A stretch of DNA of 64,000 nt from Escherichia coli (GTDB lineage Bacteria > Pseudomonadota > Gammaproteobacteria > Enterobacterales > Enterobacteriaceae). The notes under the pieces were generated by a model that was not told where the DNA came from, did no database searches, and saw only the letters and a program-made list of their open reading frames with translations. Shown piece by piece: positions 3,165 to 55,424 of the stretch; position 1 is the stretch's first letter; each line of letters opens with the position of its first letter. The translations under genes were made by a program, and so were the position numbers. The stretch lies in assembly GCF_016903815.1 (NCBI RefSeq), contig NZ_CP069973.1. One strand, given 5' to 3'.

Positions 3165-3188
3165 AGTTAGCTCCAATTTCCGTAAGGC

Positions 3189-3235
3189 AAAAAAAAAGAA
3201 AGGTAACTTCCCCCGCGAGAGGGAAGTTACCTTTC
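3189..3235 (-). terminator. Strong hairpin plus U9 tract on the minus strand, in the 5' leader of ygcW
   Basis: Perfect 15-bp stem gaaaggtaacttccc / gggaagttacctttc (3198-3212 / 3221-3235), 8-nt loop, nine A at 3189-3197 on plus (U-run on minus). Confidence 0.55.
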
Positions 3236-3288
3236 TCATTATCTCTGGTAACTGGAGATAATTTTTATCATAAGGGCATAATCGCTAA

Positions 3289-3304
3289 TGTGATCGTAAT
3301 CACA
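3289..3304. promoter_or_regulatory. Perfect-consensus CRP site (TGTGA-N6-TCACA) in the ygcW/yqcE divergent region
   Basis: tgtgatcgtaatcaca read directly; both half-sites match the CRP consensus. Confidence 0.55.
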
Positions 3305-3407
3305 GTGTGATATTCGAATTGTCAAATAATTTTAAAAAGCAGAAGCGTGATTACTCTCACACAACACCACTGCTTTCCATGTTATTTCTTATTGCAATTA
3401 CTAGAGA

Positions 3408-3460
3408 CCTGAGAAAAGTAATCCACCTGAAAGGGCGGCTTACTTTTCTCTTTTTTTTGT
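3408..3460 (+). terminator. Terminator-like hairpin plus T8 tract on the plus strand, in the 5' leader of yqcE
   Basis: Perfect 11-bp stem gagaaaagtaa / ttacttttctc with 23-nt loop, followed by tttttttt, ending 23 bp before the yqcE ATG. Confidence 0.4.
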
Positions 3461-3482
3461 CTATTACAAATGGGAATACGAT

Positions 3483-4760
3483 ATGCAACACAACTCATAT
3501 CGCCGTTGGATAGCCCTCGCGATAATTAGTTTTAGCGGCGGCGTTAGTTTCGACCTGGCTTATTTACGTTATATTTATCAAATTCCCATGGCGAAATTTA
3601 TGGGATTCAGCAATACCGAGATAGGTTTAATAATGAGTACATTTGGTATTGCGGCCATTATTCTTTATGCCCCCAGCGGCGTTATTGCCGATAAATTTTC
3701 ACACCGCAAAATGATTACTTCCGCGATGATCATTACCGGATTACTGGGTCTGTTAATGGCAACATATCCACCGCTGTGGGTAATGCTCTGTATTCAGGTC
3801 GCCTTTGCGATAACCACTATTTTAATGCTGTGGTCGGTGTCGATTAAAGCCGCCTCATTGCTGGGCGATCATAGCGAGCAAGGGAAAATTATGGGCTGGA
3901 TGGAAGGGCTGCGCGGCGTCGGTGTAATGTCGCTGGCGGTGTTTACCATGTGGGTCTTTTCTCGCTTCGCTCCGGATGACAGCGCCAGTCTGAAAACGGT
4001 CATCATCATCTATAGTGTGGTTTACATCTTGTTGGGGATTCTGTGCTGGTTTTTTGTTAGCGATAACAACAATCTGCGCAGTGCCAATAACGAAGAAAAA
4101 CAGTCATTCCAGCTTAGCGACATCCTGGCCGTTTTGCGCATCAGCACCACCTGGTATTGCAGCATGGTGATTTTTGGCGTCTTCACCATCTACGCCATTC
4201 TGAGTTACTCCACCAACTATCTGACCGAAATGTACGGCATGTCGCTGGTGGCGGCGAGCTACATGGGGATTGTGATCAACAAAATCTTCCGCGCGCTGTG
4301 CGGCCCACTTGGCGGCATTATCACCACCTACAGCAAAGTGAAATCCCCTACCCGCGTGATCCAAATCCTTTCCGTACTCGGCTTGCTGGCGTTAACTGCC
4401 CTGCTCGTCACGAACTCTAACCCGCAATCGGTCGCGATGGGGATTGGCCTGATTTTACTGCTGGGATTCACCTGTTACGCCTCACGCGGGCTGTACTGGG
4501 CCTGCCCTGGCGAAGCGAGAACACCGTCTTACATTATGGGCACCACGGTAGGTATTTGTTCGGTGATTGGATTCCTGCCGGATGTCTTCGTTTACCCGAT
4601 TATCGGCTACTGGCAAGACACCCTGCCCGCTGCAGAAGCCTACCGCAATATGTGGCTGATGGGCATGGCGGCGCTTGCCATGGTGATCGTCTTTACCTTT
4701 TTGCTGTTCCAAAAAATTCGTACTGCTGATAGCGCCCCTGCTATGGCTAGCAGCAAGTAA
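3483..4760 (+). CDS. yqcE: MFS-family transporter
   Basis: 425-aa ORF, multiple hydrophobic segments; synteny. Confidence 0.85.
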   Translation: MQHNSYRRWIALAIISFSGGVSFDLAYLRYIYQIPMAKFMGFSNTEIGLIMSTFGIAAIILYAPSGVIADKFSHRKMITSAMIITGLLGLLMATYPPLWVMLCIQVAFAITTILMLWSVSIKAASLLGDHSEQGKIMGWMEGLRGVGVMSLAVFTMWVFSRFAPDDSASLKTVIIIYSVVYILLGILCWFFVSDNNNLRSANNEEKQSFQLSDILAVLRISTTWYCSMVIFGVFTIYAILSYSTNYLTEMYGMSLVAASYMGIVINKIFRALCGPLGGIITTYSKVKSPTRVIQILSVLGLLALTALLVTNSNPQSVAMGIGLILLLGFTCYASRGLYWACPGEARTPSYIMGTTVGICSVIGFLPDVFVYPIIGYWQDTLPAAEAYRNMWLMGMAALAMVIVFTFLLFQKIRTADSAPAMASSK

Positions 4761-4786
4761 GTCCAGAAAATTACAGGAGAAAAATC

Positions 4787-6265
4787 ATGTCGAAAAAATA
4801 CATCATAGGGATTGATGGTGGAAGTCAGAGCACAAAAGTGGTGATGTACGATCTGGAAGGTAATGTGGTTTGCGAAGGCAAAGGCTTATTGCAGCCGATG
4901 CACACGCCAGATGCCGATACCGCAGAACATCCTGACGACGATTTATGGGCATCATTATGCTTTGCCGGTCACGATTTGATGAGTCAGTTTGCCGGAAATA
5001 AAGAAGATATTGTCGGTATTGGTCTGGGATCCATCCGTTGCTGCCGTGCGTTATTGAAAGCCGATGGCACGCCAGCTGCGCCGTTGATTAGCTGGCAGGA
5101 TGCACGCGTTACACGCCCTTACGAACATACGAATCCTGACGTGGCATATGTCACCTCTTTTTCGGGTTATCTGACGCATCGCTTAACCGGCGAGTTTAAA
5201 GACAATATCGCCAACTATTTTGGTCAGTGGCCGGTGGATTATAAGACCTGGGCATGGAGTGAAGATGCCGCAGTCATGGAGAAGTTTAATATCCCCCGTC
5301 ATATGCTGTTTGATGTGCAAATGCCGGGCACTGTTCTTGGGCATATCACTCCTCAAGCCGCTCTGGCGACACATTTCCCGGCTGGGCTGCCGGTTGTTTG
5401 TACCACCAGTGATAAACCGGTAGAAGCACTGGGAGCCGGGTTACTGGATGATGAAACTGCGGTAATTTCTCTTGGCACTTACATCGCGTTGATGATGAAC
5501 GGCAAATTACTACCGAAAGATCCGGTAGCGTACTGGCCGATTATGTCTTCTATTCCGCAAACCTTGCTGTATGAAGGTTACGGTATTCGCAAAGGCATGT
5601 GGACGGTGAGCTGGCTACGCGACATGTTAGGCGAGTCGTTAATTCAGGATGCCAAAGCACAGGATCTTTCACCGGAAGATTTGCTCAACAAAAAAGCGTC
5701 TTGTGTGCCGCCAGGCTGTAATGGTCTGATGACGGTGCTGGACTGGCTGACCAATCCGTGGGAACCGTACAAACGCGGGATTATGATTGGCTTTGATTCC
5801 AGCATGGATTACGCATGGATATATCGTTCGATACTGGAAAGCGTGGCGCTGACGCTGAAGAACAATTACGACAATATGTGTAATGAAATGAATCACTTTG
5901 CAAAGCATGTGATCATTACTGGCGGCGGTTCGAACAGCGATCTGTTTATGCAGATTTTTGCCGACGTGTTCAACCTTCCGGCACGCCGTAACGCCATTAA
6001 TGGTTGTGCAAGCCTGGGGGCAGCGATTAATACGGCGGTAGGTCTGGGGCTATACCCGGATTACGCAACGGCTGTCGACAAAATGGTTCGCGTGAAAGAT
6101 ATCTTTATGCCTGTTGAGAGCAACGCCAAACGCTACAACGCGATGAATAAAGGCATTTTCAAGGAGTTAACCAAACATACTGATGTAATCCTGAAAAAAT
6201 CGTATGAAGTGATGCATGGGGAATTGGGGAATGCGGATTCGATCCAGAGCTGGTCGAATGCGTAA
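4787..6265 (+). CDS. ygcE: FGGY-family carbohydrate kinase
   Basis: 492-aa ORF with N-terminal IGIDGGSQSTK kinase motif; synteny. Confidence 0.85.
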   Translation: MSKKYIIGIDGGSQSTKVVMYDLEGNVVCEGKGLLQPMHTPDADTAEHPDDDLWASLCFAGHDLMSQFAGNKEDIVGIGLGSIRCCRALLKADGTPAAPLISWQDARVTRPYEHTNPDVAYVTSFSGYLTHRLTGEFKDNIANYFGQWPVDYKTWAWSEDAAVMEKFNIPRHMLFDVQMPGTVLGHITPQAALATHFPAGLPVVCTTSDKPVEALGAGLLDDETAVISLGTYIALMMNGKLLPKDPVAYWPIMSSIPQTLLYEGYGIRKGMWTVSWLRDMLGESLIQDAKAQDLSPEDLLNKKASCVPPGCNGLMTVLDWLTNPWEPYKRGIMIGFDSSMDYAWIYRSILESVALTLKNNYDNMCNEMNHFAKHVIITGGGSNSDLFMQIFADVFNLPARRNAINGCASLGAAINTAVGLGLYPDYATAVDKMVRVKDIFMPVESNAKRYNAMNKGIFKELTKHTDVILKKSYEVMHGELGNADSIQSWSNA

Positions 6266-6311
6266 GTGAGGAAGACCGGGCGGGAAACTGCCCGGCCTGA
6301 ACATACCTGAA

Positions 6312-6449
6312 TGGTTATCCCCGCTGGCGCGGGGAACATAAGTTCGACAACTTAAAAAATGATAACAAGTCCGGTTTATCCCCGCTGATGCAGGGAACAT
6401 AATAAAAACTTTAACTAGTTCGGTTTATCCCTGTTTTTACAAGGAATAT
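6312..6449 (-). CRISPR. Degenerate type I-E CRISPR remnant (3 decayed repeats)
   Basis: Repeat-like units at about 6312-6339, 6372-6400 and 6421-6449, each with mismatches or indels versus CGGTTTATCCCCGCTGGCGCGGGGAACTC; followed by an AT-rich leader-like stretch 6450-6900. Confidence 0.6.
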
Positions 6450-6902
6450 TAACTACACTCGATGTCTTTAGAATAAAAGACAATACGAATCGCACTTTAT
6501 CAATTTTCACTTAAAGTATGAACTGGATATCTTTATTCATAAGAACTATTCATCAACAGCGTATAGAGGCGATTATGTAAAACCACTCATTAGCCTCAAA
6601 ACAAAGACAAATTTCCAGATTTATTACTTAATCAATGAATAACAAGCTTAAAAAATACACTGTTATTCTAAAGAAAAAATTAACAGGCATTAATTAATAT
6701 TAAAAAAATAATATGTTAAAATTTCTTAACGGTTTAAGGATTATACAAATAACACTTTGATTAAATTTGATTTTTTGTATCGATAATTGTGAACTTCTCA
6801 TATATGGAGAGCTATTTTGAACATGAGGTGTTACGTGGATATGTTGCTTAATACGAGTACTGCTAATATAAAAACTTGAGAAAGAGATAACGGGTTATAT
6901 GG

Positions 6903-7236
6903 TGGTTTATTCCCGCTGGTGCGGGGAACTCATCAGTGATATCCAACATTGCGGAGCTAAACGCGGTTTATCCCCGCTGGCGCGGGGAACTCTAATATCC
7001 CTGGCGATAATCAACCGGCTTACTCGGTTTATCCCCGCTGGCGCGGGGAACTCGAGAGCGAGGGGAGATTCCGGCAGGGCGTGCACGGTTTATCCCCGCT
7101 GGCGCGGGGAACTCGCGGGTATGCTCCGCTCCGTGTTCGACAAACTCGGTTTATCCCCGCTGGCGCGGGGAACTCAAGGTCGCGGGGACGCCACGGGCAG
7201 TCAATGTCGGTTTATCCCCGCTGGCGCGGGGAACTC
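6903..7236 (-). CRISPR. Type I-E CRISPR array, 6 repeats and 5 spacers, transcribed on the minus strand
   Basis: 29-bp repeats at 6903-6931 (3 mismatches, leader-distal), 6964-6992, 7025-7053, 7086-7114, 7147-7175, 7208-7236; five 32-bp spacers at 6932-6963, 6993-7024, 7054-7085, 7115-7146, 7176-7207. Confidence 0.95.
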
Positions 7237-7440
7237 ACTAAACATAACCTATTATTAATTATTGATTTTTTAAGTCAGTCACAATCTACCAACTTAACAG
7301 AAACACACAAACAACACATCCATTATGTTAAAGAGCACTTAATTCATTGATTGAAAAGCCAAATATTTAAAGTAATTCTATACCGACTAAAATCCACCAA
7401 ACTCCGACGTAATAATTTTCACTCCAACGAAAAATTAACG
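7237..7440 (-). promoter_or_regulatory. CRISPR leader (AT-rich, contains the array promoter)
   Basis: AT-rich sequence directly abutting the perfect repeat at the higher-coordinate end; the degenerate repeat is at the opposite end. Confidence 0.6.
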
Positions 7441-14245: not shown

Positions 14246-16480
14246 CTAACTCCCGTGCAACCGACGCGCGTCGATAACGTCTGGCACCTGATTGAGTTTA
14301 CCCAGCACGCGGCCCAGCACTTGCAGATTGTAAATCTCAATGGTCATGTCGATAGTCGCCAGTTGCTGTTTAGTGTCGCTACGGCTGGCAACGCCAAGCA
14401 CGTTCACCTTCTCGTTGGCAAGAATGGTCGTGATATCACGCAATAATCCACTGCGATCATTGGCCATCACCCGGACCACCAGCGAATATCCGGCGGAGTA
14501 GCTCTCACCCCATACCGCGTCAACAATGCGTTCTGGCGCATGGGAGCGCAGTTCCGCCAGTTGTTCGCAATCGGCGCGGTGTACTGAAATACCGCGTCCC
14601 TGGGTAATGAAGCCGACAATCTCATCTCCAGGAATCGGCTGACAGCAGCGCGCGATGTGGTGCATCAGGTTGCCGACACCTTCTACCACCACACGACCGT
14701 TATCTTTACTGCGGTTTTGCGGCGTATAGCTTTTTTGCTGAAGTTGCTTCAGCGCGGCGGCATCCTGCTCTTCGGCACTCGGCTTATTAAATTGCGATTG
14801 CAGGAAGTTCACCATCTGATTGAGACGGATATCCCCGCCACCAATTGCCGCCAGCAACTCGTCGACATCATTGAAGTTGTAACGCGGCAGCAGATGTTTT
14901 TCTGCTTCTTTCAGGCTGATCCCCAGATGTTCCAGCTCGTCGTCAAGGATTTGCCGCCCAGCCAGAATGTTTTTGTCACGGTCCTGTTTACGGAACCAGG
15001 CGTGAATTTTCGAACGCCCACGGCTGGTTGTGACGTAACCGAGGTTTGGGTTTAACCAGTCACGGCTGGGGTTCGGCTGTTTCTGGGTGATAATTTCAAT
15101 CTGGTCGCCCATCTGCAGCTGGTAGGTGAACGGCACAATGCGCCCGCCAATTTTTGCCCCGATGCAGCGGTGTCCGACATCACTGTGGATGTGGTAAGCG
15201 AAGTCCAGCGGTGTTGATCCCGCAGGCAAATCAACGACGTCACCTTTCGGCGTAAAGACGTACACCCGGTCGTCAAAGACCTGGCTGCGTACTTCGTCGA
15301 GCATTTCGCCGGAATCAGCCATCTCTTCCTGCCACGCAATCAGTTTACGCAGCCAGGCAATTCGGTCTTCATGTCCCGAACGTGCGCCGCCAGCTGCCGC
15401 GCCTTCTTTATATTTCCAGTGCGCAGCAACACCCAACTCTGCATCTTCATGCATCTGTTTGGTGCGGATTTGGATCTCTACGGTTTTGCCACCTGGTCCC
15501 AGAACCACGGTATGAATAGACTGATAACCGTTTGGTTTCGGGTTAGCGACGTAATCGTCAAACTCATCCGGCAGGTGGCGATAGTGAGTGTGCACTATCC
15601 CCAGTGCGGCATAACAATCCTGTAAACGCTCGGCGACAATACGTACCGCACGCACATCAAACAGCTCATCGAAGGCGAGGTTCTTTTTCTGCATTTTGCG
15701 CCAGATGCTGTAGATGTGTTTCGGACGACCATACACTTCAGCTTTAACGCCTTCAGCTTTCATCTCAGCGCGCAGATGACCGACAAACTCTTCGATATAG
15801 TGTTCGCGGTCGAGACGGCGTTCATGCAACAGTTTTGCGATGCGTTTGTATTCGGTCGGGTGGAGATAACGGAAGCAGTAATCTTCCAGCTCCCATTTCA
15901 GTTGTCCAATCCCAAGACGGTTCGCCAACGGCGCGTAGATATTGGTGCACTCTTTTGCCGCCAGTACGCGTTCATCTTCCGGCGCGTCTTTTACTTCGCG
16001 CAGATGAGCAATACGCTCTGCCAGTTTAATGACCACGCAGCGAAAATCATCGACCATCGCCAATAACATCCGGCGAACGTTATCGACCTGTTCGGAGGAA
16101 ACAGAATCGGTATGCGTCGCTTTCAGCTGGCGGATCGCCGCCATATCACGCACGCCGTGAATAAGGTTAACGACCGACTTACCGACGCACTCACGCAGCA
16201 CATCTTCGCTGACTACGTTGGCATCCGCCAGAGGGAACAGCAGCGCCGCCCGCAGCGTGTCAATGTCCATACTTAATGTCGAGAGGATCTCCACCATCTC
16301 AACACCACGCCACAATAACAGACTGGCATCCGGATGTCCCTGCGTCTGTTGCAGACAATACGCCCAGGTTTCGGCTAAGCACTCACACGACTTCTGGCTG
16401 GTAATACCCAGACTTGCGATCCATTTTTCCGGATCAAATTCACCAGCCTTATTGATATGTGCACTTCTTACCGCAACCAT
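14246..16480 (-). CDS. relA: GTP pyrophosphokinase, (p)ppGpp synthetase I
   Basis: 744-aa ORF; synteny. Confidence 0.95.
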   Translation of the reverse strand: MVAVRSAHINKAGEFDPEKWIASLGITSQKSCECLAETWAYCLQQTQGHPDASLLLWRGVEMVEILSTLSMDIDTLRAALLFPLADANVVSEDVLRECVGKSVVNLIHGVRDMAAIRQLKATHTDSVSSEQVDNVRRMLLAMVDDFRCVVIKLAERIAHLREVKDAPEDERVLAAKECTNIYAPLANRLGIGQLKWELEDYCFRYLHPTEYKRIAKLLHERRLDREHYIEEFVGHLRAEMKAEGVKAEVYGRPKHIYSIWRKMQKKNLAFDELFDVRAVRIVAERLQDCYAALGIVHTHYRHLPDEFDDYVANPKPNGYQSIHTVVLGPGGKTVEIQIRTKQMHEDAELGVAAHWKYKEGAAAGGARSGHEDRIAWLRKLIAWQEEMADSGEMLDEVRSQVFDDRVYVFTPKGDVVDLPAGSTPLDFAYHIHSDVGHRCIGAKIGGRIVPFTYQLQMGDQIEIITQKQPNPSRDWLNPNLGYVTTSRGRSKIHAWFRKQDRDKNILAGRQILDDELEHLGISLKEAEKHLLPRYNFNDVDELLAAIGGGDIRLNQMVNFLQSQFNKPSAEEQDAAALKQLQQKSYTPQNRSKDNGRVVVEGVGNLMHHIARCCQPIPGDEIVGFITQGRGISVHRADCEQLAELRSHAPERIVDAVWGESYSAGYSLVVRVMANDRSGLLRDITTILANEKVNVLGVASRSDTKQQLATIDMTIEIYNLQVLGRVLGKLNQVPDVIDARRLHGS

Positions 16481-17885: not shown

Positions 17886-20642
17886 ATGACCAACTACAGC
17901 CTGCGCGCACGCATGATGATTCTGATCCTGGCACCGACCGTCCTTATTGGTTTATTGCTGAGTATCTTTTTCGTTGTGCATCGCTATAACGACTTGCAGC
18001 GTCAACTGGAAGATGCCGGAGCCAGCATTATTGAGCCGCTTGCAGTTTCTACTGAATATGGCATGAGCCTGCAAAATCGCGAATCTATCGGTCAGTTAAT
18101 AAGCGTACTGCATCGTCGCCATTCCGATATTGTTCGCGCGATTTCGGTTTATGATGAAAATAACCGACTCTTTGTCACCTCCAATTTTCATCTTGATCCT
18201 TCATCAATGCAGCTCGGCAGCAACGTGCCGTTTCCTCGCCAGCTCACTGTCACTCGTGACGGCGATATTATGATCCTCCGCACGCCGATTATTTCTGAGA
18301 GTTACTCCCCCGACGAATCGCCCAGTAGCGATGCCAAAAATAGTCAAAATATGCTGGGATATATTGCGCTGGAGCTGGATCTTAAATCGGTTCGCTTGCA
18401 GCAATATAAAGAGATCTTTATTTCCAGCGTGATGATGCTGTTTTGTATCGGTATTGCGCTTATTTTTGGCTGGCGCTTAATGCGCGATGTAACCGGTCCG
18501 ATTCGCAACATGGTGAATACCGTCGACCGCATCCGTCGCGGGCAACTCGACAGCCGGGTGGAAGGATTTATGCTCGGCGAGCTGGATATGCTGAAAAACG
18601 GTATCAACTCGATGGCAATGTCGCTGGCTGCTTATCACGAAGAGATGCAGCATAATATCGACCAGGCGACGTCCGATCTGCGTGAAACGCTGGAGCAGAT
18701 GGAAATTCAGAACGTTGAGTTGGATCTGGCGAAAAAGCGCGCCCAGGAAGCGGCGCGTATTAAATCCGAGTTTCTGGCAAATATGTCACACGAGCTGCGT
18801 ACACCACTGAATGGTGTTATTGGCTTTACCCGCCTGACGCTGAAAACAGAATTAACACCAACGCAGCGCGATCACCTGAATACGATTGAACGTTCGGCAA
18901 ATAATTTGCTGGCAATTATTAATGATGTTCTCGACTTCTCGAAACTGGAAGCAGGTAAGCTGATTCTGGAAAGTATTCCATTCCCACTACGCAGCACGCT
19001 GGATGAAGTCGTTACCCTGCTGGCACATTCTTCTCACGATAAAGGGTTGGAACTGACGCTCAATATTAAGAGCGACGTGCCCGATAACGTGATCGGCGAC
19101 CCACTGCGATTACAGCAAATCATCACTAACCTGGTGGGGAATGCAATTAAATTCACCGAGAATGGCAACATTGATATTCTGGTAGAAAAACGTGCGCTGA
19201 GTAATACCAAAGTGCAGATTGAAGTGCAGATTCGGGATACCGGCATTGGTATTCCTGAACGCGATCAATCGCGCTTATTCCAGGCCTTCCGACAGGCTGA
19301 TGCCAGTATTTCCCGCCGTCATGGTGGTACCGGGCTGGGGCTGGTGATTACACAAAAACTGGTTAATGAAATGGGCGGCGATATTTCGTTCCATAGCCAG
19401 CCGAATCGCGGTTCAACTTTCTGGTTCCACATTAATCTCGATCTGAATCCGAACATTATTATCGAAGGGCCATCCACCCAGTGCCTCGCCGGCAAGCGCC
19501 TGGCCTATGTCGAACCAAACTCCGCAGCAGCGCAATGCACGCTGGATATTTTAAGTGAAACGCCGCTGGAAGTGGTTTATAGCCCAACGTTCTCCGCGCT
19601 GCCTCCCGCGCATTACGACATGATGTTGTTAGGCATCGCGGTGACCTTCCGCGAGCCGCTAACAATGCAACATGAGCGATTAGCGAAAGCAGTATCGATG
19701 ACCGATTTTCTCATGCTGGCACTTCCTTGCCATGCACAAGTCAATGCTGAAAAACTTAAGCAAGATGGTATCGGCGCGTGTCTGCTGAAACCATTAACAC
19801 CTACGCGCCTGTTACCTGCCCTGACGGAATTTTGTCATCACAAACAAAACACGCTTTTGCCTGTAACCGATGAAAGTAAGCTGGCAATGACAGTCATGGC
19901 GGTTGATGACAACCCCGCTAACCTGAAACTTATCGGCGCATTGCTGGAAGATATGGTGCAACATGTGGAACTTTGCGATAGCGGGCATCAGGCGGTTGAA
20001 CGGGCGAAACAGATGCCGTTCGATTTGATCTTAATGGATATTCAAATGCCGGACATGGACGGTATTCGGGCCTGCGAACTCATCCACCAGCTCCCCCATC
20101 AGCAACAAACGCCGGTTATCGCGGTAACGGCGCATGCAATGGCCGGGCAAAAAGAGAAGCTGCTTGGCGCAGGGATGAGCGATTATCTGGCGAAACCGAT
20201 TGAAGAAGAACGATTGCATAATTTGCTGTTGCGCTACAAGCCTGGCAGCGGTATTTCCTCTCGCGTCGTGACGCCCGAAGTCAACGAAATTGTGGTGAAC
20301 CCGAATGCGACCCTCGACTGGCAACTGGCACTACGCCAGGCAGCAGGAAAAACCGATTTAGCGCGCGATATGCTGCAAATGTTACTCGATTTCCTGCCTG
20401 AAGTTCGCAACAAAGTTGAGGAACAGCTGGTTGGAGAAAACCCGGAAGGCCTGGTTGATTTGATTCATAAACTGCATGGCAGTTGCGGCTATAGCGGTGT
20501 GCCGCGTATGAAGAATCTCTGCCAACTGATCGAACAACAGCTACGTAGCGGTACTAAAGAAGAAGATTTGGAGCCGGAGCTGCTGGAACTGTTAGACGAG
20601 ATGGATAATGTAGCGCGCGAAGCCAGCAAAATTCTCGGGTAA
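17886..20642 (+). CDS. barA: hybrid sensor histidine kinase BarA
   Basis: 918-aa ORF with two N-terminal TM segments, HAMP, HisKA (HELRTPLN), receiver and HPt domains. Confidence 0.95.
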
Positions 20643-25829: not shown

Positions 25830-26612
25830 TTAGGAACTTATCTCTCCATCCTGACCCGATGGCGCACTGAACTCAACCCTTTCATTTTCAGGAAGCAGAC
25901 CCCGCCAGCCAAATTGTGATAACGCCTGCATCCAGGTGTCGTCCAGGCCCGCGTGAATAGTCAGCGGCTCGCCAGTAAAAGGATGCGTCAATGACAACTG
26001 ACTGGCATGCAGCATTAACCGCTGAAGGCCAAAATGTTCAGCACCGCTGCGATTCTGGCGTAAATCACCATGTTTGCTGTCGCCAATAATCGGGTGGCGC
26101 AAATGGGCAAGATGGCGACGGAGCTGGTGCTTACGTCCAGTTTTCGGCTCCAGTTCCACCAGGCCGTAGCGCGTGGTCGGGTAACGTCCGGTCGCTATCG
26201 GCATTTCTACGGTCGCCAGACCGCGATAATGCGTCACTGCTGGCTGTGGGCCTTTATCTTCGCGGGCAAATTTATCAGCGATTTTGTCCAGTTCTTCCAC
26301 CAGTGGATAATCCAGAACTGCTTCTTCCATCAACCAGCCGCGCACAATCGCATGGTAACGTTTCTGGATTTGGTGCTGTTCAAACTGTTGTGCCAGCAGC
26401 CGTCCGGCCTCGCTGGATAATCCCATCAACAACACACCAGAAGTGGGTCGGTCCAGACGATGAGCAGTAAACACATGCTGGCCTATCTGGTCACGCACGG
26501 TTTGCATGACCACTACTTTCTCGTCGCGATCCAGCCAGCTGCGGTGAACCAGCCAGCCGGAGGGTTTATTTACCGCAACCAGCCATTCATCCTGATAGAG
26601 TATTTCCAGCAT
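25830..26612 (-). CDS. truC: tRNA pseudouridine65 synthase
   Basis: 260-aa ORF with RluA-family motif ([12 protein letters not shown]). Confidence 0.9.
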
Positions 26613-26941
26613 TAGCTCGCATCATCCGCAAAAAGAGCATCCAGTTTTTCCAGCTCAGCCAGAATAAGCGCGCGTTGCGGGTGGTCCGTCGCCAGCGCCA
26701 TTTCATAATAGGGTGCAACGGCAAAAGCGCCCGGTAACGGCTGGTTGTTATCTAACAAATCGTGCATTCGCGGGATCAGCACCCACTGCAACCACTCCAG
26801 TGGTTCCATGGTGTCCATAAAGAACGGTTGGGTACTGTTAAATTGATGCGGCTGGGGTTCATCGTTTTGCCAGTGCTGATGTTCACGCAGTAATGCTTCA
26901 AGCGCCTGCAGCTGGAGACGAACGCGGTCATGAGTGGTCAT
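26612..26941 (-). CDS. yqcC: DUF446-family protein
   Basis: 109-aa ORF; stop/start overlap with truC. Confidence 0.8.
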   Translation of the reverse strand: MTTHDRVRLQLQALEALLREHQHWQNDEPQPHQFNSTQPFFMDTMEPLEWLQWVLIPRMHDLLDNNQPLPGAFAVAPYYEMALATDHPQRALILAELEKLDALFADDAS

Positions 26942-26984
26942 AAAGCAACCTCAATAAGAAAAACTGCCGCGAAGGATAGCAGGA

Positions 26985-27352
26985 ATAAAAAAAGGGAGCA
27001 CTGTATTCACAGTGCTCCCGGTTCGTTTCGCAGCATTCCAGCTACTTTTGTTGCTCCCTGCTCATCCTTGACAACTTTTCCTCTGGCCTTGCGGCCAATC
27101 GTTCATCCTGAACTATTGCTTCCTGCTCACACCACCCCGATGTGATACTTCATCCTGAAGTGTCCCTGGCCTTCCTGACCCACCGAATCATCCTGACCGG
27201 TTCTCATTCTCCATCCTGGAGGTGTCCTTTAACGCGTCCTGCGTCATCCTCTTCGCTTCATCCAGAAGCCTTTCCCTGAAACACCATCCTGGTGTGTCCT
27301 TCAGAAGTGTCATCATCCTGATGTTCACTTCGTTGTCTGACTCCCTGTCGAC
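26985..27352 (-). ncRNA. csrB: CsrB sRNA (CsrA-sequestering, many GGA motifs)
   Basis: Minus strand starts GTCGACAGGGAGTCAGACAACGAAG (RC of 27328-27352), carries about 18 CAGGA(U)G-type repeats (seen as catcctg on plus) and ends in hairpin GGGAGCACTGTGAATACAGTGCTCCC plus U-run near 26985. Confidence 0.93.
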
Positions 27353-27525
27353 GAAGATAGAATCGTCTTTTTCGCGAAGACTTACAAGGCGCTTACAGAC
27401 AATGCCTTAAGGAAAATTTCATATGAAAGTTAAGAATTGACAAGCAATATATTGATTTTAAATGAAAATAACGATTCTTATCTTTTTAAGTATTCGCTTA
27501 TTTCCTGGCGATCTCCTACAGAGTC

Positions 27526-27543
27526 TGTAAGAGATCTCTCACA
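27526..27543. promoter_or_regulatory. UvrY (BarA/UvrY) binding palindrome upstream of csrB
   Basis: Perfect 18-bp palindrome tgtaagagatctctcaca about 175 bp upstream of the csrB 5' end. Confidence 0.75.
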
Positions 27544-27562
27544 ACCAGATGGGGTATTTGGA

Positions 27563-28108
27563 TTACAGAAGAGGCTTAAGTTGATTAAGGAATTCCGCAA
27601 GATTTGAGGCTAAATGCGTCCGTTTACGTGTTCCCAGCGTCTCTTTGCACACTTCACCGGAGAGATTACACACCGAGATGACCTCTAACTCTTCTTCCAG
27701 CGTCGCGATAAATAGCGTGGGCGGCAGTTTTAGCCTTTTCTGAGTCACCAGATGACCAATCAGATTTTCCTGCACCCGACGGAAATCGTCTTCACTCCAG
27801 GTTTGCAGCAATGTCAGTTTGATATCGCCAAACTGCGCGTGCATATCCCCGGCAAACTGAGTCGTATAAAAGGTATGAATCGTGGGTTGTATCACAATAT
27901 CAAAAGCGCGTTCAACCGCGTTTACATTTTGTTCCCCGGTAAACGGCTGGGGTTGCCAGTATACGGCATCTTCGGTAGTTGAAATAATGCACGGTGAAGG
28001 AACGCCGTACAGTTCCTCACTCAACGGCCAGCTTTTATGCTCTTCATGCCACGCATCGCAGTAACATGCAGTAAAATCTTTCAGGGCTTGTGCGGTCAAA
28101 TCGTCCAC
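27563..28108 (-). CDS. syd: SecY-interacting protein Syd
   Basis: 181-aa ORF; synteny. Confidence 0.9.
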
Positions 28109-36648: not shown

Positions 36649-37647
36649 TTATTTTTTTCTTATGCGCTTAATTAATTTCATTCCTACTTTAACTGTTTTT
36701 TTGACTGGTCTTTCTTCGATCGCGCTTAACATCATTTCGAACGCTTTTTCTGCCCAGGCATTTTCATCCTGCTGCATTGACCAGACATTGTTGGCGAGAA
36801 ATCCCAGCATAGGATGTTCATCGAAAGTGCCAATATTGATTTCTGGCGGTACAGCGCCAAGACGGTCGCGAATCGCGCGGACAGCGCCTTCAAGCACAGG
36901 CAAAGACGAGGCGATAAATGCCTGCGGACATCCCTGCTCTTCAATGAGTTTTTCCATAATGACATAGCCGCCTTCCGGAGTATTTACCGGACCTTCCCGC
37001 ACCCAATCGCGATGGGTAATCCCTTTTTTTGCCAACGCATTCAAATAACCTGTCAGACGATCGCTGATACTCGGCAAACCGGCATCTCCCAGCAAAAACC
37101 ATACTGGAGCCTGCCCGGCCTCAAGAATATTTTGCGTCAGCTTTTCTCCGCCAGAAATATTATTACTCTCTACCAATGCGTTATCGGTATATTTAAAATC
37201 ACGATCGAGTAAAACCATGGGCTTACGAATTTTGCGTAAATGATGCTGCTGATTTTCCAGCGTCGAAGGAACAATAAAAAGACCATCTACATTTCGTGCG
37301 ATAAATGCTTTCGTCAATTTATTTTCATAGTCAACATCATCATAAGTGCAACTGATTGTAAGTTGATATCCGGAACGTCGACAGCGTTGTTCGAGTTTTT
37401 CTGCCAGCGTAGCAAAAAAGACGTTGGATATGTTGGGAACAATCAACCCTAATGTATCAGTTTTGTTAAGCTTAAGGCTGCGAGCGGAATGATTAATGAT
37501 ATAACCATAGCGTTCAACATATTCATTGATACGCGTTTGGGTTTTGACGCTGATTCGATATTGTTCCGCTTTTCCATTTAGCACCAGTCGCACGGTCGTA
37601 ACCGATAAATTCAGGTCGCTGGCTATCTGCTCTACTGTTTTAGCCAT
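36649..37647 (-). CDS. LacI/GalR-family transcriptional regulator
   Basis: 332-aa ORF with N-terminal HTH (MAKTVEQIASDLNLSVTTVRLVLNG...) and periplasmic-binding-like effector domain. Confidence 0.85.
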   Translation of the reverse strand: MAKTVEQIASDLNLSVTTVRLVLNGKAEQYRISVKTQTRINEYVERYGYIINHSARSLKLNKTDTLGLIVPNISNVFFATLAEKLEQRCRRSGYQLTISCTYDDVDYENKLTKAFIARNVDGLFIVPSTLENQQHHLRKIRKPMVLLDRDFKYTDNALVESNNISGGEKLTQNILEAGQAPVWFLLGDAGLPSISDRLTGYLNALAKKGITHRDWVREGPVNTPEGGYVIMEKLIEEQGCPQAFIASSLPVLEGAVRAIRDRLGAVPPEINIGTFDEHPMLGFLANNVWSMQQDENAWAEKAFEMMLSAIEERPVKKTVKVGMKLIKRIRKK

Positions 37648-37711
37648 AGGTATTTCCCAGTTAACATCCAGACGTCAAATCACAATCATAAAAGTATTTT
37701 CAACTTTTGTC

Positions 37712-39292
37712 TTATTGCATCAGTTGGTTAACCGCCTGTTGTTGCTCCCAAAGCGTCAGGTAAACCCGGTATTTACGCTCTAAAAATTCACGGCGTTGTG
37801 GATTTACCTGAATAATCTCTCCGGCTTCAACCATTGCTTTACACGCAGATGTAAAATCCCCCCATGCTCCGCTGGCAACAGCGCCGCTAATTGCTGCGCC
37901 CAACGTAACGGCATCTTCTTCTTGCATCAGGTGGATATCGCAACCTGTCACGTCTGCATATTCGCGTAGCCATAAAGGGTTGTGCGTTGCACCACCACAT
38001 AATGTTAATCGGGTAATGGTATGCCCATTTTCCCGCAGAGTTTCAATAATATGTCTGGTGCCAAAGGCTATTGCCTGTAAAGTCGCAAGATAAAGTCGCG
38101 CGAGCTGATTTTCACCACGCTCCAGTGTTAAGCCATAAACACTGCCTCTGGCATCGGGCCGCGCTCGTGGCGAACGGTTGCCGTGATGATCGGCAAGCAC
38201 ATGTAAATTTCGTGTGGGTTCTGACTCGTTAGCTTCAAGGGCTGCTACCCATTCATTAATCAGTTGAATCGGATGACATCCGCGTTGCTGCGCCTTGTGA
38301 AAAAGATTTGCGCTTGCCCCTGACTCCTGAAGCGTCCACTCCACCAGCGCCCCTGCGGCGCTTTGCCCGCCTTCGGTTAGCCAGTAATTTGGCAACATGG
38401 CCGACCAGTATGGCCCCCAGACGCCAGGGGTGAATATCTCTTTTTCACTACACAGCATATGGCAGTTCGACGTTCCGCTTATCAATGCCAGCGTTCCTAA
38501 TGGGTGAGCGCCAGCCAGCGCCACGCCACCGGCATGGGCATCAATCAAGCCACTGGCCACGATAACATTAGTCGTTAATCCTAACTCTTCAGCAGCTGTG
38601 GCGGTTAACGTTCCCACGGCAGCGCCAGGCGGAAGAATGTCGGCAGGAATTCTTTCAAGCATATCGGTCAGGTCTATCGATTCCAGTAAGCTATGGCTAA
38701 AGCGTTGCTCATGAGCTAGATAATTCCATTTACACGTTAGCGTGCATAATCCCGCGACGTCTCGCCCTGTTGCTTTCCAGACCAGAAAATCCGCCAGATC
38801 GAAAAAGCGATGAGCGGCCTGCCAGGTTTGCGGTAGATGCGTCTTCAACCAACGTAACTTTGGTAACTCCATCTCGACGCTCACTTCGCCGCCAACGTAG
38901 CGCAATGCGGGATCCTTCATTGCGTTAATCTGCGCCGTCTCGACAGTTGCACGATGATCCATCCACATAATAATGTCGTGATTCGCAGATCCACCGGACG
39001 AAACCGCTAAACCCTGGCCTTGTTCATCAAGAACAACCAGCGAGCAGGTAGCGTCAAAACCCAGTGAGCGAATTGCGGAAATGGGGATGCCTGCCAAAGC
39101 TGTCGCCTCTTTCACCGTTTTACAAACTTGTTGCCAGATCTCTGCCGAAGACTGTTCGACACGCTCGCCGCCAGGGCGAAACTGGGAGACGGGCGCAGTA
39201 GCGAATGCCAGCCTGTGGCCACTGGCACTGTAAACGCCTGCCCTGACACTGGCCGATCCGACATCGACACCGAGAAAATAACCGTTGTGCAT
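37712..39292 (-). CDS. FGGY-family pentulose-type kinase (candidate D-ribulokinase)
   Basis: ORF 37712..39412; start set at MHNGYFLGVDVGSASVRAGVY with AGGGAGG RBS (527 aa); DHHGNRSP motif typical of the ribulokinase/pentulose-kinase branch. Confidence 0.8.
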   Translation of the reverse strand: MHNGYFLGVDVGSASVRAGVYSASGHRLAFATAPVSQFRPGGERVEQSSAEIWQQVCKTVKEATALAGIPISAIRSLGFDATCSLVVLDEQGQGLAVSSGGSANHDIIMWMDHRATVETAQINAMKDPALRYVGGEVSVEMELPKLRWLKTHLPQTWQAAHRFFDLADFLVWKATGRDVAGLCTLTCKWNYLAHEQRFSHSLLESIDLTDMLERIPADILPPGAAVGTLTATAAEELGLTTNVIVASGLIDAHAGGVALAGAHPLGTLALISGTSNCHMLCSEKEIFTPGVWGPYWSAMLPNYWLTEGGQSAAGALVEWTLQESGASANLFHKAQQRGCHPIQLINEWVAALEANESEPTRNLHVLADHHGNRSPRARPDARGSVYGLTLERGENQLARLYLATLQAIAFGTRHIIETLRENGHTITRLTLCGGATHNPLWLREYADVTGCDIHLMQEEDAVTLGAAISGAVASGAWGDFTSACKAMVEAGEIIQVNPQRREFLERKYRVYLTLWEQQQAVNQLMQ

Positions 39293-39344
39293 AAAGCCTC
39301 CCTGACGCTGGAGATAACGGGGATGAAAATTCATCCCCAATTTT

Positions 39345-40295
39345 TTATTTCTTACCGAATGGGTGCAGGAGTTTGTCGATTTCTGGCGTGTTAATATTCT
39401 CGGCATTAACAAATTTCACGGGAATATCGATCTCTTTTTCAACGGCTTGCCCCGAAAGGGCCGCGTTCAACGTTTTGATCCCTTGATAGCCAATCTGGTA
39501 TGCATCCTGAACAACAAAGCCCTGAATGACGCCGTTCTTCAGGAAGTTAATAATCGCTTCCGTACTATCAAAACCAATGACCTTCACCTTACCTTTCAGA
39601 TTCTGGCTATCAATGGCATTCGCCACCCCGAGCGTTGAACCTTCATTGGTGCCATAGATCCCAGCAAGATCGGGATTGGCCTGAATCATATCGATAGTTT
39701 TATCCATCGCTTTTTGCGGGTCACCATCGCTGTACTGAACGGGTAAGACTTTAATGTCAGGATATTTTTCTTTCATACGCTCCATGAAGCCTTCCGAGCG
39801 TTCAATAGCGGAAGATGTTCCTGCAACGTGCGCGATAATCCCAACTTTCCCTTTATTATTTACCTGCGAGGCTAAGGCATCAGCTGCCTGAGCACCTGCT
39901 TTACGGTTATTGGTGGCGACAAAACTCACCGGAATGTCTGAATTGATGCCTGAATCAAAGGTCACCACTTTGATACCGCGTGAATTTGCCGTTTCTACCA
40001 GTGGGGCGAGCGCATTCGCGTCGAGGGCTGCCAGAAGCAAGCCATTCGGTTTCTGCGCCATCGCATTTTCGACTAACTGAATTTGCTCGGCTATTTGCGT
40101 TTCATCAGCCGGGCCAACATAGCTGGTTTTATCCCCCAACTCTTTAGCCGCAGCTTCAGTCCCCATTTTTACGGTTTGCCAGAATTCATGTTGGAAACCT
40201 TTACTAACAACCGGAAGATTTAAATCCTTCGCCAGTGCGCTGGAACTTACGCAAGCCAGCAGAGATAACGCATAGATAAAATGCCTGGTTTTCAT
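39345..40295 (-). CDS. periplasmic sugar-binding protein (RbsB-like) of the ABC transporter
   Basis: ORF 39345..40418; start set at MKTRHFIYALSLLACVSSSALA (signal peptide) giving 316 aa. Confidence 0.8.
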   Translation of the reverse strand: MKTRHFIYALSLLACVSSSALAKDLNLPVVSKGFQHEFWQTVKMGTEAAAKELGDKTSYVGPADETQIAEQIQLVENAMAQKPNGLLLAALDANALAPLVETANSRGIKVVTFDSGINSDIPVSFVATNNRKAGAQAADALASQVNNKGKVGIIAHVAGTSSAIERSEGFMERMKEKYPDIKVLPVQYSDGDPQKAMDKTIDMIQANPDLAGIYGTNEGSTLGVANAIDSQNLKGKVKVIGFDSTEAIINFLKNGVIQGFVVQDAYQIGYQGIKTLNAALSGQAVEKEIDIPVKFVNAENINTPEIDKLLHPFGKK

Positions 40296-40368
40296 TGTTG
40301 TACTCCGTTCTGAGTGAATCACCCTTAACGTCAGGGCAGTTGTTTCCCGATAAAACAGGGAGCCTAAG

Positions 40369-41352
40369 TCAACGAATCTTTTTGCGTAATGTATCGAGGT
40401 AAACGGCAGCGACCACAACGACGCCCATCGCGACCATTTGCCAGAACTGGGAGACGCCCATTAAATTGAGGCCATTTTTCAGTACACTCATAATGAAAGC
40501 GCCAATGATTGTGCCGCCAATAGTGCCAATACCGCCCATTAAGCTGGTTCCGCCAATCACTACCGCGGCAATAGCTTCCAGTTCATAACCCACACCTACC
40601 GTCGGTTGTCCGGAGTTGAGACGAGATGCCAGAATGACACCTGCAATCCCCGTTAATAATCCACAGAAGGCATAGACGAAAATTTTCACGCGCTGAACTT
40701 TAATACCAGAAAGATGAGCAGCAACTTCATTACTGCCTACGGCATAGACATAGCGACCAATGACGGTTTTCTTCAGGATGTAAGCGCCGACAAGCGCTAC
40801 AATGACAAGGTAGAAAACAGGATAAGGCAGCACATCAAATAAGCGTCCCTGAGCGAGCGTTTTGAACATCGGGTAATCGGCAAAATAGATGGCGCGCCCG
40901 TCGGTCATCACCATATTGATACCTCTGACGGACATCATCAGGCCCAAGGTAGCGATAAATGGTGGAATGGTCATTTTAGTGACCAACAAACCATTCACAT
41001 AGCCGCACATTCCACCGGCTAAAACACCGGCAATAATACACACTGGCAGCGGCAGGCCCAGTGTGGCGCAAATCCCCACGGCGACACCAGAAAAAGCCAC
41101 CACGGAGCCCAATGAAAGATCGATGCCCGCGGTAATAATGACGAAAGTTACCCCAATGGCCATAATGCCGATAACCGACGTTTGCAGAGCAATCGTCATG
41201 ATATTTTCGGTATTAAAGAAAAAGGGAGAGCTGAAACTAAAAAACAGCACTAATATAATTAAGCTAAAAAGAGGCGCAAGGCGCATCAAAAGTTCTTTAT
41301 TTATCTTTATTTTCTTATTATTACTGTCTGGAGAGGTTACAGAGATAGTCAT
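40369..41352 (-). CDS. sugar ABC transporter permease (RbsC-like)
   Basis: 327-aa hydrophobic ORF with multiple TM segments. Confidence 0.8.
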   Translation of the reverse strand: MTISVTSPDSNNKKIKINKELLMRLAPLFSLIILVLFFSFSSPFFFNTENIMTIALQTSVIGIMAIGVTFVIITAGIDLSLGSVVAFSGVAVGICATLGLPLPVCIIAGVLAGGMCGYVNGLLVTKMTIPPFIATLGLMMSVRGINMVMTDGRAIYFADYPMFKTLAQGRLFDVLPYPVFYLVIVALVGAYILKKTVIGRYVYAVGSNEVAAHLSGIKVQRVKIFVYAFCGLLTGIAGVILASRLNSGQPTVGVGYELEAIAAVVIGGTSLMGGIGTIGGTIIGAFIMSVLKNGLNLMGVSQFWQMVAMGVVVVAAVYLDTLRKKIR

Positions 41353-41355
41353 AAT

Positions 41356-42870
41356 TTAATCCTCTAACGTCGCGTATTGCATAATTTTTTCTTGTGTCGC
41401 TTCTTTTGCGCTAAGTTCGCCGGTAATTCGACCACTGCGCATCACTAAAATACGGTCGCACATTCCTAACACCTCAGGCAATTCAGAGGAGATCATGATG
41501 ATTGATTTCCCTTTTGCCACCAGGCGATTCATTAACTCATAGATTTCCAGTTTGGCGCCAACATCAATGCCGCGAGTGGGTTCATCGAAGATTAAAATAT
41601 CAGTATCTTTACACACCCAACGTGCAATTATAATTTTCTGCTGGTTTCCTCCACTTAGATTTAATGCCGCCTGTTCAAGATTTGGCGTTTTAATCCTTAA
41701 CGCTTTTACCTGTTCCTCACTGGTTTGTTGGCAACGACGCGAATCGACATTCCCAAAACGATCGGAATATTCAGGGTAGTTTCCTAACATAATATTTCGT
41801 TCAACAGATAAATTCAGCGCCAGCCCTTCTTTTTTGCGGTCTTCCGTCAGGTAACTAATTCCCTGCTGAATAGCATCCGAAATATCTTTAATAACGGTTT
41901 CCTTACCATTTAATTTTAGCGTTCCGCTGTCAATAGAATCCGCACCAAAAATCGCACGCGCAAGTTCAGTACGCCCCGCGCCCATCAGTCCGGCAAAGCC
42001 GAGGATCTCGCCACGATAAAGCGTAAAATTAATATCGTTCAGGACGCCTTTGCGCGTCAGTCCGTTTACCTCCAGAACCGGAATCCGCTGCTGCAAGGCC
42101 TCGCGGCGGGGATAGATATTCCCTAAATCGCGACCAACCATCATGGCAATCAGATCGCTGATTTTTACGCACTCATAATCCACCGTGCTGATGTACTGAC
42201 CATCACGCATTACAGTCGCACGGTCGGCAATTAGCGCCAACTCTTCCAGACGGTGGGAGATATAAACAATGCCGGTCCCCTGCTCTTTCAATAACCGGGT
42301 GACGCGAAATAAGCTTTCAATTTCAGTTTCTGTTAACGCCGCAGTAGGTTCATCCATAATGAGAATCCTGGCGTTAACTGAAATGGCCTTGGCAATTTCT
42401 ACCATCTGCTGCTGAGCTACCGTAAGGTCGGCAACCAGAGTATCTGGTTTGATCGCCAAATTTAATTTTTGCAAAATTTCAATCGTCGCCTGGCGTTGCT
42501 GTTTTTCATCCAGACGCCAGCGATTTTTTTTACAAAACTCCCTGCCGATAAAAATATTTTCTTCTACTGTAAGCTCGGGAAATAAATTAAATTCCTGGTG
42601 AATAATAGTAATACCTACGTTTTGCGCACTTAACGGATCAGAAAATGAGACTGGTTTATCTTCAAAAATTATTTCGCCTTCATCAGGTTGATAAACCCCC
42701 GACAAAATTTTCATTAAGGTAGATTTTCCTGCACCATTTTCACCTAATAATGCATGAACCTCGCCCCGGCGTAGGGAAAATTGCACGTCATTAAGCGCCA
42801 ACACTCCAGGAAAGCGTTTGGTGATATGCTTCATTTGCAAAAATGTTTCGGACATTGCAGCTTTCCTCAA
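41356..42870 (-). CDS. sugar ABC transporter ATP-binding protein with two NBDs (RbsA/CUT2-like)
   Basis: 504-aa ORF with Walker A GENGAGKST, second P-loop GLMGAGRTE and signature LSGGNQQK. Confidence 0.85.
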   Translation of the reverse strand: MRKAAMSETFLQMKHITKRFPGVLALNDVQFSLRRGEVHALLGENGAGKSTLMKILSGVYQPDEGEIIFEDKPVSFSDPLSAQNVGITIIHQEFNLFPELTVEENIFIGREFCKKNRWRLDEKQQRQATIEILQKLNLAIKPDTLVADLTVAQQQMVEIAKAISVNARILIMDEPTAALTETEIESLFRVTRLLKEQGTGIVYISHRLEELALIADRATVMRDGQYISTVDYECVKISDLIAMMVGRDLGNIYPRREALQQRIPVLEVNGLTRKGVLNDINFTLYRGEILGFAGLMGAGRTELARAIFGADSIDSGTLKLNGKETVIKDISDAIQQGISYLTEDRKKEGLALNLSVERNIMLGNYPEYSDRFGNVDSRRCQQTSEEQVKALRIKTPNLEQAALNLSGGNQQKIIIARWVCKDTDILIFDEPTRGIDVGAKLEIYELMNRLVAKGKSIIMISSELPEVLGMCDRILVMRSGRITGELSAKEATQEKIMQYATLED

Positions 42871-50436: not shown

Positions 50437-50642
50437 ACTTCCTGAGCCGGAACGAAAAGTTTTATCGGAATGCGTGTTCTGGTGAACTTTTGGCTTACGG
50501 TTGTGATGTTGTGTTGTTGTGTTTGCAATTGGTCTGCGATTCAGACCATGGTAGCAAAGCTACCTTTTTTCACTTCCTGTACATTTACCCTGTCTGTCCA
50601 TAGTGATTAATGTAGCACCGCCTAATTGCGGTGCTTTTTTTT
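50437..50642 (+). ncRNA. gcvB: GcvB sRNA
   Basis: Starts ACTTCCTGAGCCGGAACGAAAAG, contains the G/U-rich region GTTGTGATGTTGTGTTGTTGTGTTTG and ends in hairpin GCACCGCCTAATTGCGGTGC plus U-run; divergent from gcvA. Confidence 0.9.
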
Positions 50643-53635: not shown

Positions 53636-53735
53636 TGCCTGATGCGCTACGCTTATCAGGCCTACATAACTCCTGCAATATTTTGGATTTGCATGATTTG
53701 TAGGCCGGATAAGGCGTTCACGCCGCATCCGGCAT
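53636..53735. repeat. BIME: two REP units in opposite orientation
   Basis: gcctgatgcgctacgcttatcaggcctac and aggccggataaggcgttcacgccgcatccggcatg; flanked by near-identical direct repeats gaggttatccctcaccct / gaggttacccctcaccct. Confidence 0.75.
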
Positions 53736-55127: not shown

Positions 55128-55204
<77 letters not shown>

Positions 55205-55237
55205 ATTAAAATTTGATGAAGTAAAGCAGTACGGTGA

Positions 55238-55314
<77 letters not shown>

Positions 55315-55347
55315 ATCAAATTTGATGAAGTAAAAGCAGTACGGTGA

Positions 55348-55424
<77 letters not shown>

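Follow-up and report, generated by a model that had tools for sequence, protein, structure and literature searches.

An intact csrB with its upstream UvrY inverted repeat, in the neighborhood of barA, on an Escherichia coli chromosome

The BarA-UvrY-CsrB-CsrA circuit governs carbon storage, biofilm formation, motility and virulence. An initial annotation of a 64-kb stretch of E. coli DNA (hereafter the window, meaning the whole stretch analyzed) placed csrB, an upstream palindrome for UvrY and the sensor gene barA within it and labeled the arrangement a known circuit. This raises the question of whether csrB is intact here and equipped with the control elements described for K-12, and whether its proximity to barA carries any functional meaning. 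With regard to the first part, we consider it almost certain that the locus is an intact, orthologous E. coli csrB with its complete known control region, and no sequence evidence contradicting the csrB reading was found at the locus. The label of a known circuit was apt; the csrB locus has been described before and contributes no component, arrangement or mechanism that is new. The value of the analysis lies in correct annotation, namely in labels for csrB, the UvrY and IHF sites and barA, and in the removal of two false ORF calls.

The window is a segment of E. coli chromosome that is identical to strain 7/2 (NZ_CP023820.1) at 50,215 of 50,215 compared positions. A 751-bp query around csrB is likewise 100% identical to strain 7/2 and finds a match in 5,425 of 5,426 complete E. 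coli genomes. The matching records include one that is classed as a plasmid, not as a chromosome; a single complete genome lacks any match to the csrB region.

The csrB gene and its RNA

A scan of the whole window with Rfam models identified CsrB (RF00018) on the minus strand at 26984-27343, with a score of 382.9 bits (E = 2e-111) against a gathering score of 71 bits; the match spans model positions 1-356 of 356 and is not truncated. In this alignment the 11 GGA hairpins and the terminator are free of flagged non-canonical pairs. When the K-12 gene (b4408, 369 nt) was transferred onto the window it fell on 26984-27352 with no indels and with 367 of 369 bases identical, and it follows from this one-to-one mapping that the 5′ end of csrB is GTCGACAGGGAGTC at 27352, as in K-12. 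A covariance-model scan and an alignment to K-12 had been named in the initial annotation as ways to check the identification, and both, the former far above its cut-off and the latter with equal length and the same 5′ end, bear it out. The gene, its terminator and its two neighbors are as follows.

26984 to 27352, minus strand: csrB, encoding the 369-nt CsrB sRNA (+1 at 27352, 3′ end at 26984; Rfam RF00018 and K-12 b4408 mapping)
26984 to 27019, minus strand: csrB intrinsic terminator, an 11-bp stem (GGGAGCACTGT/ACAGTGCTCCC) with a 4-nt loop, then TTTTTTTATT (terminator scan and Rfam terminal hairpin)
26612 to 26941, minus strand: yqcC, downstream neighbor of csrB (ORF list; annotated in K-12 and strain 7/2)
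27563 to 28108, minus strand: syd, upstream neighbor of csrB (NF003439, 284.6 bits; ORF list; K-12 and strain 7/2 annotations)

The terminator consists of a GC-rich 11-bp hairpin (27019-26994) followed by seven T residues (TTTTTTT). With the full RF00018 model matched and both stem and U-tract in place, the earlier description of csrB as intact and complete with its terminator is correct. The span it gave, 26985-27560, does contain csrB, but the 3′ end lies at 26984 rather than 26985, and the strand, which is minus, had been left unstated. The two substitutions relative to K-12, C52A and G340A, both fall outside GGA. The first turns the CAGGAC of GGA site 3 into AAGGAC, and the second converts a G-U pair in the terminator stem of K-12 to A-U, a change that would strengthen the stem compared with that of K-12.

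K-12 CsrB binds CsrA and sequesters it through GGA motifs (PMC5027483). The sense strand of csrB has 22 GGA trinucleotides versus 2 on the antisense strand, and mononucleotide shuffles of the gene yield a mean of 12.3 (sd 2.8); the published count for the 369-nt K-12 RNA is also 22 (Vakulskas et al. 2016, PMC5027483). The initial annotation had put the number at about 18. GGA-rich repeats are indeed present, but their count is 22, and "about 18" is an older count of CAGGA(U/A/C)G-like repeats. Among the GGA sites, 9 match CAGGA(U/A/C)G exactly, 12 match it with no more than one mismatch and 16 with no more than two. In the predicted minimum-free-energy fold, 17 of the 22 GGA are unpaired (9 in hairpin loops, 8 in other single-stranded regions), and the mean unpaired probability in the predicted fold is 0.81 at GGA versus 0.44 over the whole of CsrB. 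From the sequence and its likeness to K-12 we infer that CsrB of this strain would sequester CsrA through these GGA sites.

Within csrB the ORF list holds no ORF of 50 or more amino acids on the sense strand. On the opposite strand it holds two entries that overlap the gene.

26930 to 27145, plus strand: spurious ORF of 71 aa (ORF1), antisense to the csrB 3′ half and terminator
27222 to 27410, plus strand: spurious ORF of 62 aa (ORF2), antisense to the csrB 5′ part and promoter

Both have ATG or GTG starts and both stay open in two other E. coli genomes, K-12 among them (tblastn, 97-100% identity), as one might expect if they were real small-protein genes antisense to csrB. There is practically no chance that they are, given that the frames are broken in relatives, that their variable columns are evenly spread and that they belong to no NCBIfam family. 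Specifically, alignment of the orthologous regions from 15 other Enterobacteriaceae, namely E. albertii and members of 14 further genera, revealed premature stops in ORF1 in all 15 relatives and in ORF2 in 13 of 15. Despite 98% DNA identity, the E. albertii copy of ORF1 has a 1-bp insertion and ends at codon 16. That of ORF2 ends at codon 50, and Citrobacter, like several other genera, has a stop at codon 14 of this frame. The variable columns are distributed 34/37/37 over the three codon positions of ORF1 and 41/36/41 over those of ORF2, with no third-position excess, and a search of NCBIfam families returned no match for ORF1, ORF2 or a third ORF at 27437-27607. ORF1 and ORF2 are artefacts of reading the csrB complement, in agreement with how the initial annotation had treated them; the scarcity of stop codons on the plus strand would stem from its being the C/T-rich complement of a G/A-rich RNA.

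Natural variation at the gene itself includes one disruption. In E. coli 1919D62, a swine isolate, a 1,258-bp insertion with an IS3-family transposase (locus 2743-4000) splits csrB at RNA nucleotides 92-94 and is accompanied by a 3-bp duplication. In 22 of the 5,425 matching E. coli genomes altogether, coverage of the 751-bp csrB query falls below 80%.

The control region upstream of csrB

Four elements were placed in the control region, listed here from the most distal to the most proximal.

27526 to 27543, no strand assigned: 18-bp nearly perfect inverted repeat, the UvrY-P site; TGTGAGAGATCTCTTACA in csrB sense, -191 to -174
27512 to 27520, minus strand: extra UvrY half-site TGTAGGAGA, -168 to -160, 5 bp downstream of the repeat; read from the sequence
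27445 to 27457, minus strand: IHF consensus core AATCAATATATTG (WATCAANNNNTTR), -105 to -93, centered at about -99; perfect consensus match
27359 to 27387, minus strand: putative weak core promoter with a -35 element TTGTAA (27387-27382), a 17-bp spacer and a -10 element GATTCT (27364-27359); read manually, below the scan threshold

The 18-mer quoted in the initial annotation, TGTAAGAGATCTCTCACA, occurs once in the window, at 27526-27543, where chance alone would give 0.02 matches per window even with 3 mismatches allowed. It had been called a perfect palindrome, which overstates its symmetry, as only 8 of 9 positions pair and its reverse complement differs from it at 2 bases. The distance of about 175 bp to csrB that accompanied this description is accurate for the near edge, at 174 bp from +1 (27352); the repeat extends to 191 bp upstream and its center is at -182.5. 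In the form TGTRAG-N6-CTYACA, the sole exact match in the window is again 27526-27543. A search of the 64-kb window for further UvrY boxes of this form with up to 2 mismatches gave 3 matches versus 5.5 expected, and of these the csrB site alone is real.

Zere et al. 2015 (PMC4682653) describe the same sequence at E. coli csrB as an "18 nt nearly perfect palindrome" centered at -183/-182. By ChIP-exo and DNase I footprinting, the K-12 repeat is bound by phosphorylated UvrY; it forms the center of the upstream UvrY ChIP-exo crosslinking region of K-12 csrB, and crosslinking there is abolished when barA is disrupted (PMC4682653). The 18-mer in the window is identical letter for letter to the footprinted K-12 sequence and has the same center, so its designation as a UvrY site stands. 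Identity with K-12 supports the view that the window 18-mer is the UvrY-P site, and it would be expected to be bound in this strain as well.

The position of the repeat might suggest a different role. It lies only 20 bp past the stop codon of syd (27563), on the same strand, and its RNA could form a 7-bp hairpin, as would befit a transcription terminator for syd; alternatively it might be the site of another regulator. A terminator scan, however, detected nothing terminator-like at the repeat, and no U-tract follows it. Moreover, the identical K-12 sequence is footprinted by UvrY-P, with barA-dependent crosslinking (PMC4682653), and elsewhere the same 18-mer keeps a conserved distance to CsrB-like genes, including Vibrio loci that have no adjacent syd. 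We therefore regard a role as syd terminator or as another regulator's site, in place of a UvrY site, as exceedingly improbable, and treat the repeat as the UvrY site in what follows.

The extra half-site next to the repeat has been described for both K-12 and Salmonella csrB (PMC4682653). Of 100 oriented loci from other species among the matches listed, about half carry a TGTRRGANA-like 9-mer where the half-site would be.

A perfect match to the IHF consensus sits between the repeat and the core promoter. It is a predicted site, and the consensus has 7 occurrences in the window versus 2.8 expected. At K-12 csrB, Zere et al. (PMC4682653) located a putative IHF site between the UvrY crosslinking sites that lie upstream and those proximal to the promoter. 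In published experiments (PMC4682653, PMC5027483), both optimal binding of UvrY and transcription of csrB depend on IHF, and ihf mutants of K-12 have about 10-fold less of the transcript. A scan for sigma-70 consensus sites upstream of csrB +1 identified none, which fits an activator-dependent promoter.

The circuit that these elements would serve is known from sequences that are identical to the window at the repeat and near-identical elsewhere (PMC4682653, PMC5027483). BarA senses carboxylates (acetate, formate) and autophosphorylates on H302, from which the phosphoryl group passes to D718, H861 and finally D54 of UvrY (PMC4682653, PMC5027483). By analogy, BarA in this strain would sense carboxylates and phosphorylate UvrY; UvrY-P would bind the upstream repeat with the assistance of IHF and thereby promote csrB transcription; and the GGA sites of CsrB would then sequester CsrA dimers. 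IHF-induced bending likely brings the distant UvrY-P to RNA polymerase. In the published system, cleavage of CsrB is blocked by CsrA bound at GGA sites 20 and 21, a block that CsrD relieves (PMC4682653, PMC5027483). Every sequence element that the circuit requires at csrB is present and essentially that of K-12, from which we infer that binding and expression would follow in this strain too.

Compared with K-12 csrB (b4408), csrB of the window has the same 369-nt length and ends, 22 GGA, an identical repeat at -182.5 with the same half-site TGTAGGAGA, an IHF consensus at the matching position and unchanged neighboring genes, and it differs by 2 substitutions in the RNA and 5 in the promoter region. 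The csrB gene of Salmonella enterica, controlled by SirA, has the same 18-nt repeat at -182/-181 together with the extra half-site and a putative IHF site (PMC4682653), but it is an orthologue in another species and was compared by the description in that paper only. In E. coli, csrC also specifies a UvrY-P-activated, GGA-rich, CsrA-sequestering sRNA with an upstream repeat (PMC4682653); unlike csrB, it belongs to another Rfam family and lies at another locus, outside the window, its repeat is far less symmetric (TGTGAGACATTGCCGATA), and it is without an IHF site or IHF dependence (PMC4682653).

The five control-region substitutions relative to K-12 are at 27380, 27439, 27444, 27448 and 27451. 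None lies in the UvrY site, and the one at 27380 falls just downstream of the -35-like hexamer. The other four cluster within 13 bp (27439-27451) around the IHF core; the two inside the core, at 27448 and 27451, hit N positions and spare every specified position. The promoter allele of the window is a minority one: over 27395-27505 (111 bp), 399 of the 5,425 complete E. coli genomes share it with 99% identity or more; a 61-bp segment containing the repeat reaches this identity in 4,364 of 5,425. It is conceivable, if unlikely, that the minority allele alters IHF bending or promoter strength and so gives this lineage its own CsrB level and a different CsrA set-point.

The repeat and CsrB-type genes in other genomes

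We used the 18-mer (TGTRAGAGATCTCTYACA) as a query against 100,044 species genomes and recovered at least 120 loci, which are drawn from Enterobacterales, Vibrionaceae, Shewanella, Halomonadaceae, Alcanivorax and Kangiellaceae. GGA trinucleotides were counted in the 500 nt beginning 120 nt from the repeat, for which the background is about 6. Among the matches listed, 100 of 125 occurrences have 15 or more GGA (typically 20-35) on one side only, and the GGA-dense region starts a median of 171.5 nt from the repeat, at about 170-185 bp.

In scans with Rfam models, each of 19 Enterobacterales loci gave a full-length CsrB match adjoining the repeat (178-380 bits), with the start of the CsrB model 164-242 nt from the repeat in all 19 and 180-184 nt from it in 12. 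The RF00018 gathering score is reached in 10 of 11 Vibrionaceae loci versus 0 of 9 other loci, and in the Shewanella (two loci), Halomonadaceae, Alcanivorax and Kangiella loci scanned no Rfam family reaches gathering beside the repeat. Next to the repeat, the number of GGA per 500 nt is 25-29 in Shewanella, compared with 10-17 in Halomonadaceae and Alcanivorax; the GGA-rich neighbors in these three groups are probably Csr/Rsm-type sRNAs that lie beyond the curated models.

Gene neighborhoods are also shared. Syd and YqcC flank the repeat/CsrB pair in at least 50 loci of other Enterobacterales and Vibrionaceae, and Syd, YqcC and TruC flank it throughout Enterobacterales and in part of the Vibrionaceae. 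The association of the repeat with CsrB-type genes is general, as already published, which makes the window a typical member.

The same logic of control extends further. Pseudomonas RsmY, RsmZ and RsmX and the Vibrio CsrB paralogues follow it, with a kinase of the GacS/BarA type, a regulator of the GacA/UvrY type, a TGTAAG-N6-CTTACA box upstream and a decoy RNA with multiple GGA. The Pseudomonas Rsm RNAs are shorter than CsrB and of different families. The exact 18-mer of the window stands beside GGA-rich genes in Vibrionaceae and Shewanella too, but Vibrionaceae differ in having several paralogous copies per genome with weaker RF00018 matches (80-137 bits). Photobacterium indicum (locus 2618-4808) has a tandem array of three CsrB-family copies (117-137 bits) inside 1.9 kb, in a stretch with two copies of the 18-bp repeat; two other loci (L073 and L027) also have two.

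The broad sample bears on a further idea, that the asymmetric position of the repeat (G distally, A proximally) reflects a strong constraint through polar binding. In Enterobacterales the two orientations of this asymmetry are represented 38:3, and in Vibrionaceae 21:12 plus 13 fully symmetric A/A sites. Because the Enterobacterales sites amount to one orthologous locus, and the paralogue-rich Vibrionaceae reach only 21:12, we rejected polarity as a strong constraint; the orientation bias is probably a matter of inheritance.

A copy of the 18-mer was also recovered from a MAG labeled Porphyromonadaceae (Bacteroidota), at 14541-14558, with no GGA-rich neighbor. Either chance or misbinning probably accounts for it.

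barA and the gene order of the window

The sensor gene stands on the other side of yqcC and truC from csrB, on the opposite strand.

17886 to 20642, plus strand: barA, encoding a tripartite sensor kinase of 918 aa (ORF list; NCBIfam NF008318)

The protein scores 1623.9 bits against the NCBIfam equivalog NF008318 (cut-off 890) over residues 1-917, and shows 0 amino-acid differences from K-12 BarA, with H302, D718 and H861 present. The barA stop (20642) and the csrB 3′ end (26984) are 6,342 bp apart; both the identity of the gene, by NF008318 and the K-12 match, and the spacing of about 6.3 kb were thus rightly stated before. The gene for UvrY lies outside the window.

The order in the window is rlmD, barA, gudD, gudX, gudP, yqcA, truC, yqcC, [csrB], syd, queF, and it is that of K-12 MG1655. 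As in K-12 and strain 7/2, csrB is situated between syd and yqcC with all three on one strand.

A sensor kinase gene so close to the target of its own circuit might be there for a reason, such as co-regulation, co-transfer or local signaling, and the two genes are indeed separated by about 10 kb or less in E. coli, E. albertii, Enterobacter, Cedecea and probably Pantoea. Against this, barA is on the opposite strand with six unrelated genes between it and csrB, the signal runs via UvrY, which is encoded elsewhere, and the loci of Hafnia, Rahnella, Dickeya, Vibrio and Shewanella showed no BarA match in the 6-9 kb of available sequence past truC. It follows from this distribution of BarA that the linkage exists only in part of the Enterobacterales and varies with the gud operon. 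In E. albertii (locus 2516-7354), for example, barA and yqcA have no gudPXD operon between them, so that just 1,725 bp separate the barA stop from the csrB 3′ end. Linkage of barA and csrB as a general feature was rejected on the grounds that only part of the Enterobacterales has it. We consider a functional basis for the 6.3-kb proximity very unlikely; as the signal carrier UvrY is diffusible, the proximity of barA reads as inherited gene order rather than a mechanistic link.

Other features of the window were noted along the way. The RefSeq (PGAP) feature table of strain 7/2 lists tRNAs, and ncRNA features for csrB and gcvB are absent from it despite full-length Rfam matches (382.9 and 199 bits). 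The GcvB sRNA lies at 50437-50642 on the plus strand of the window (Rfam 199 bits, full length). At 53658-53700 on the minus strand, in the tcdA/mltA spacer, is a match to the sRNA ES036 (CssrF) of 46.5 bits (gathering score 37.6). Three identical tandem tRNA genes at 55128-55421 (plus strand) are tRNA-Met in the annotation of strain 7/2 and occupy the position of metZWV in K-12. Finally, the interval between fucA and fucI (~36649-42855) holds five minus-strand genes in strain 7/2, which is identical to the window here, and fucP in K-12. The five genes encode a LacI-family regulator, an FGGY-family carbohydrate kinase, and the binding protein, permease and ATPase of an ABC transporter, and fucP appears to have been replaced in the window and strain 7/2.
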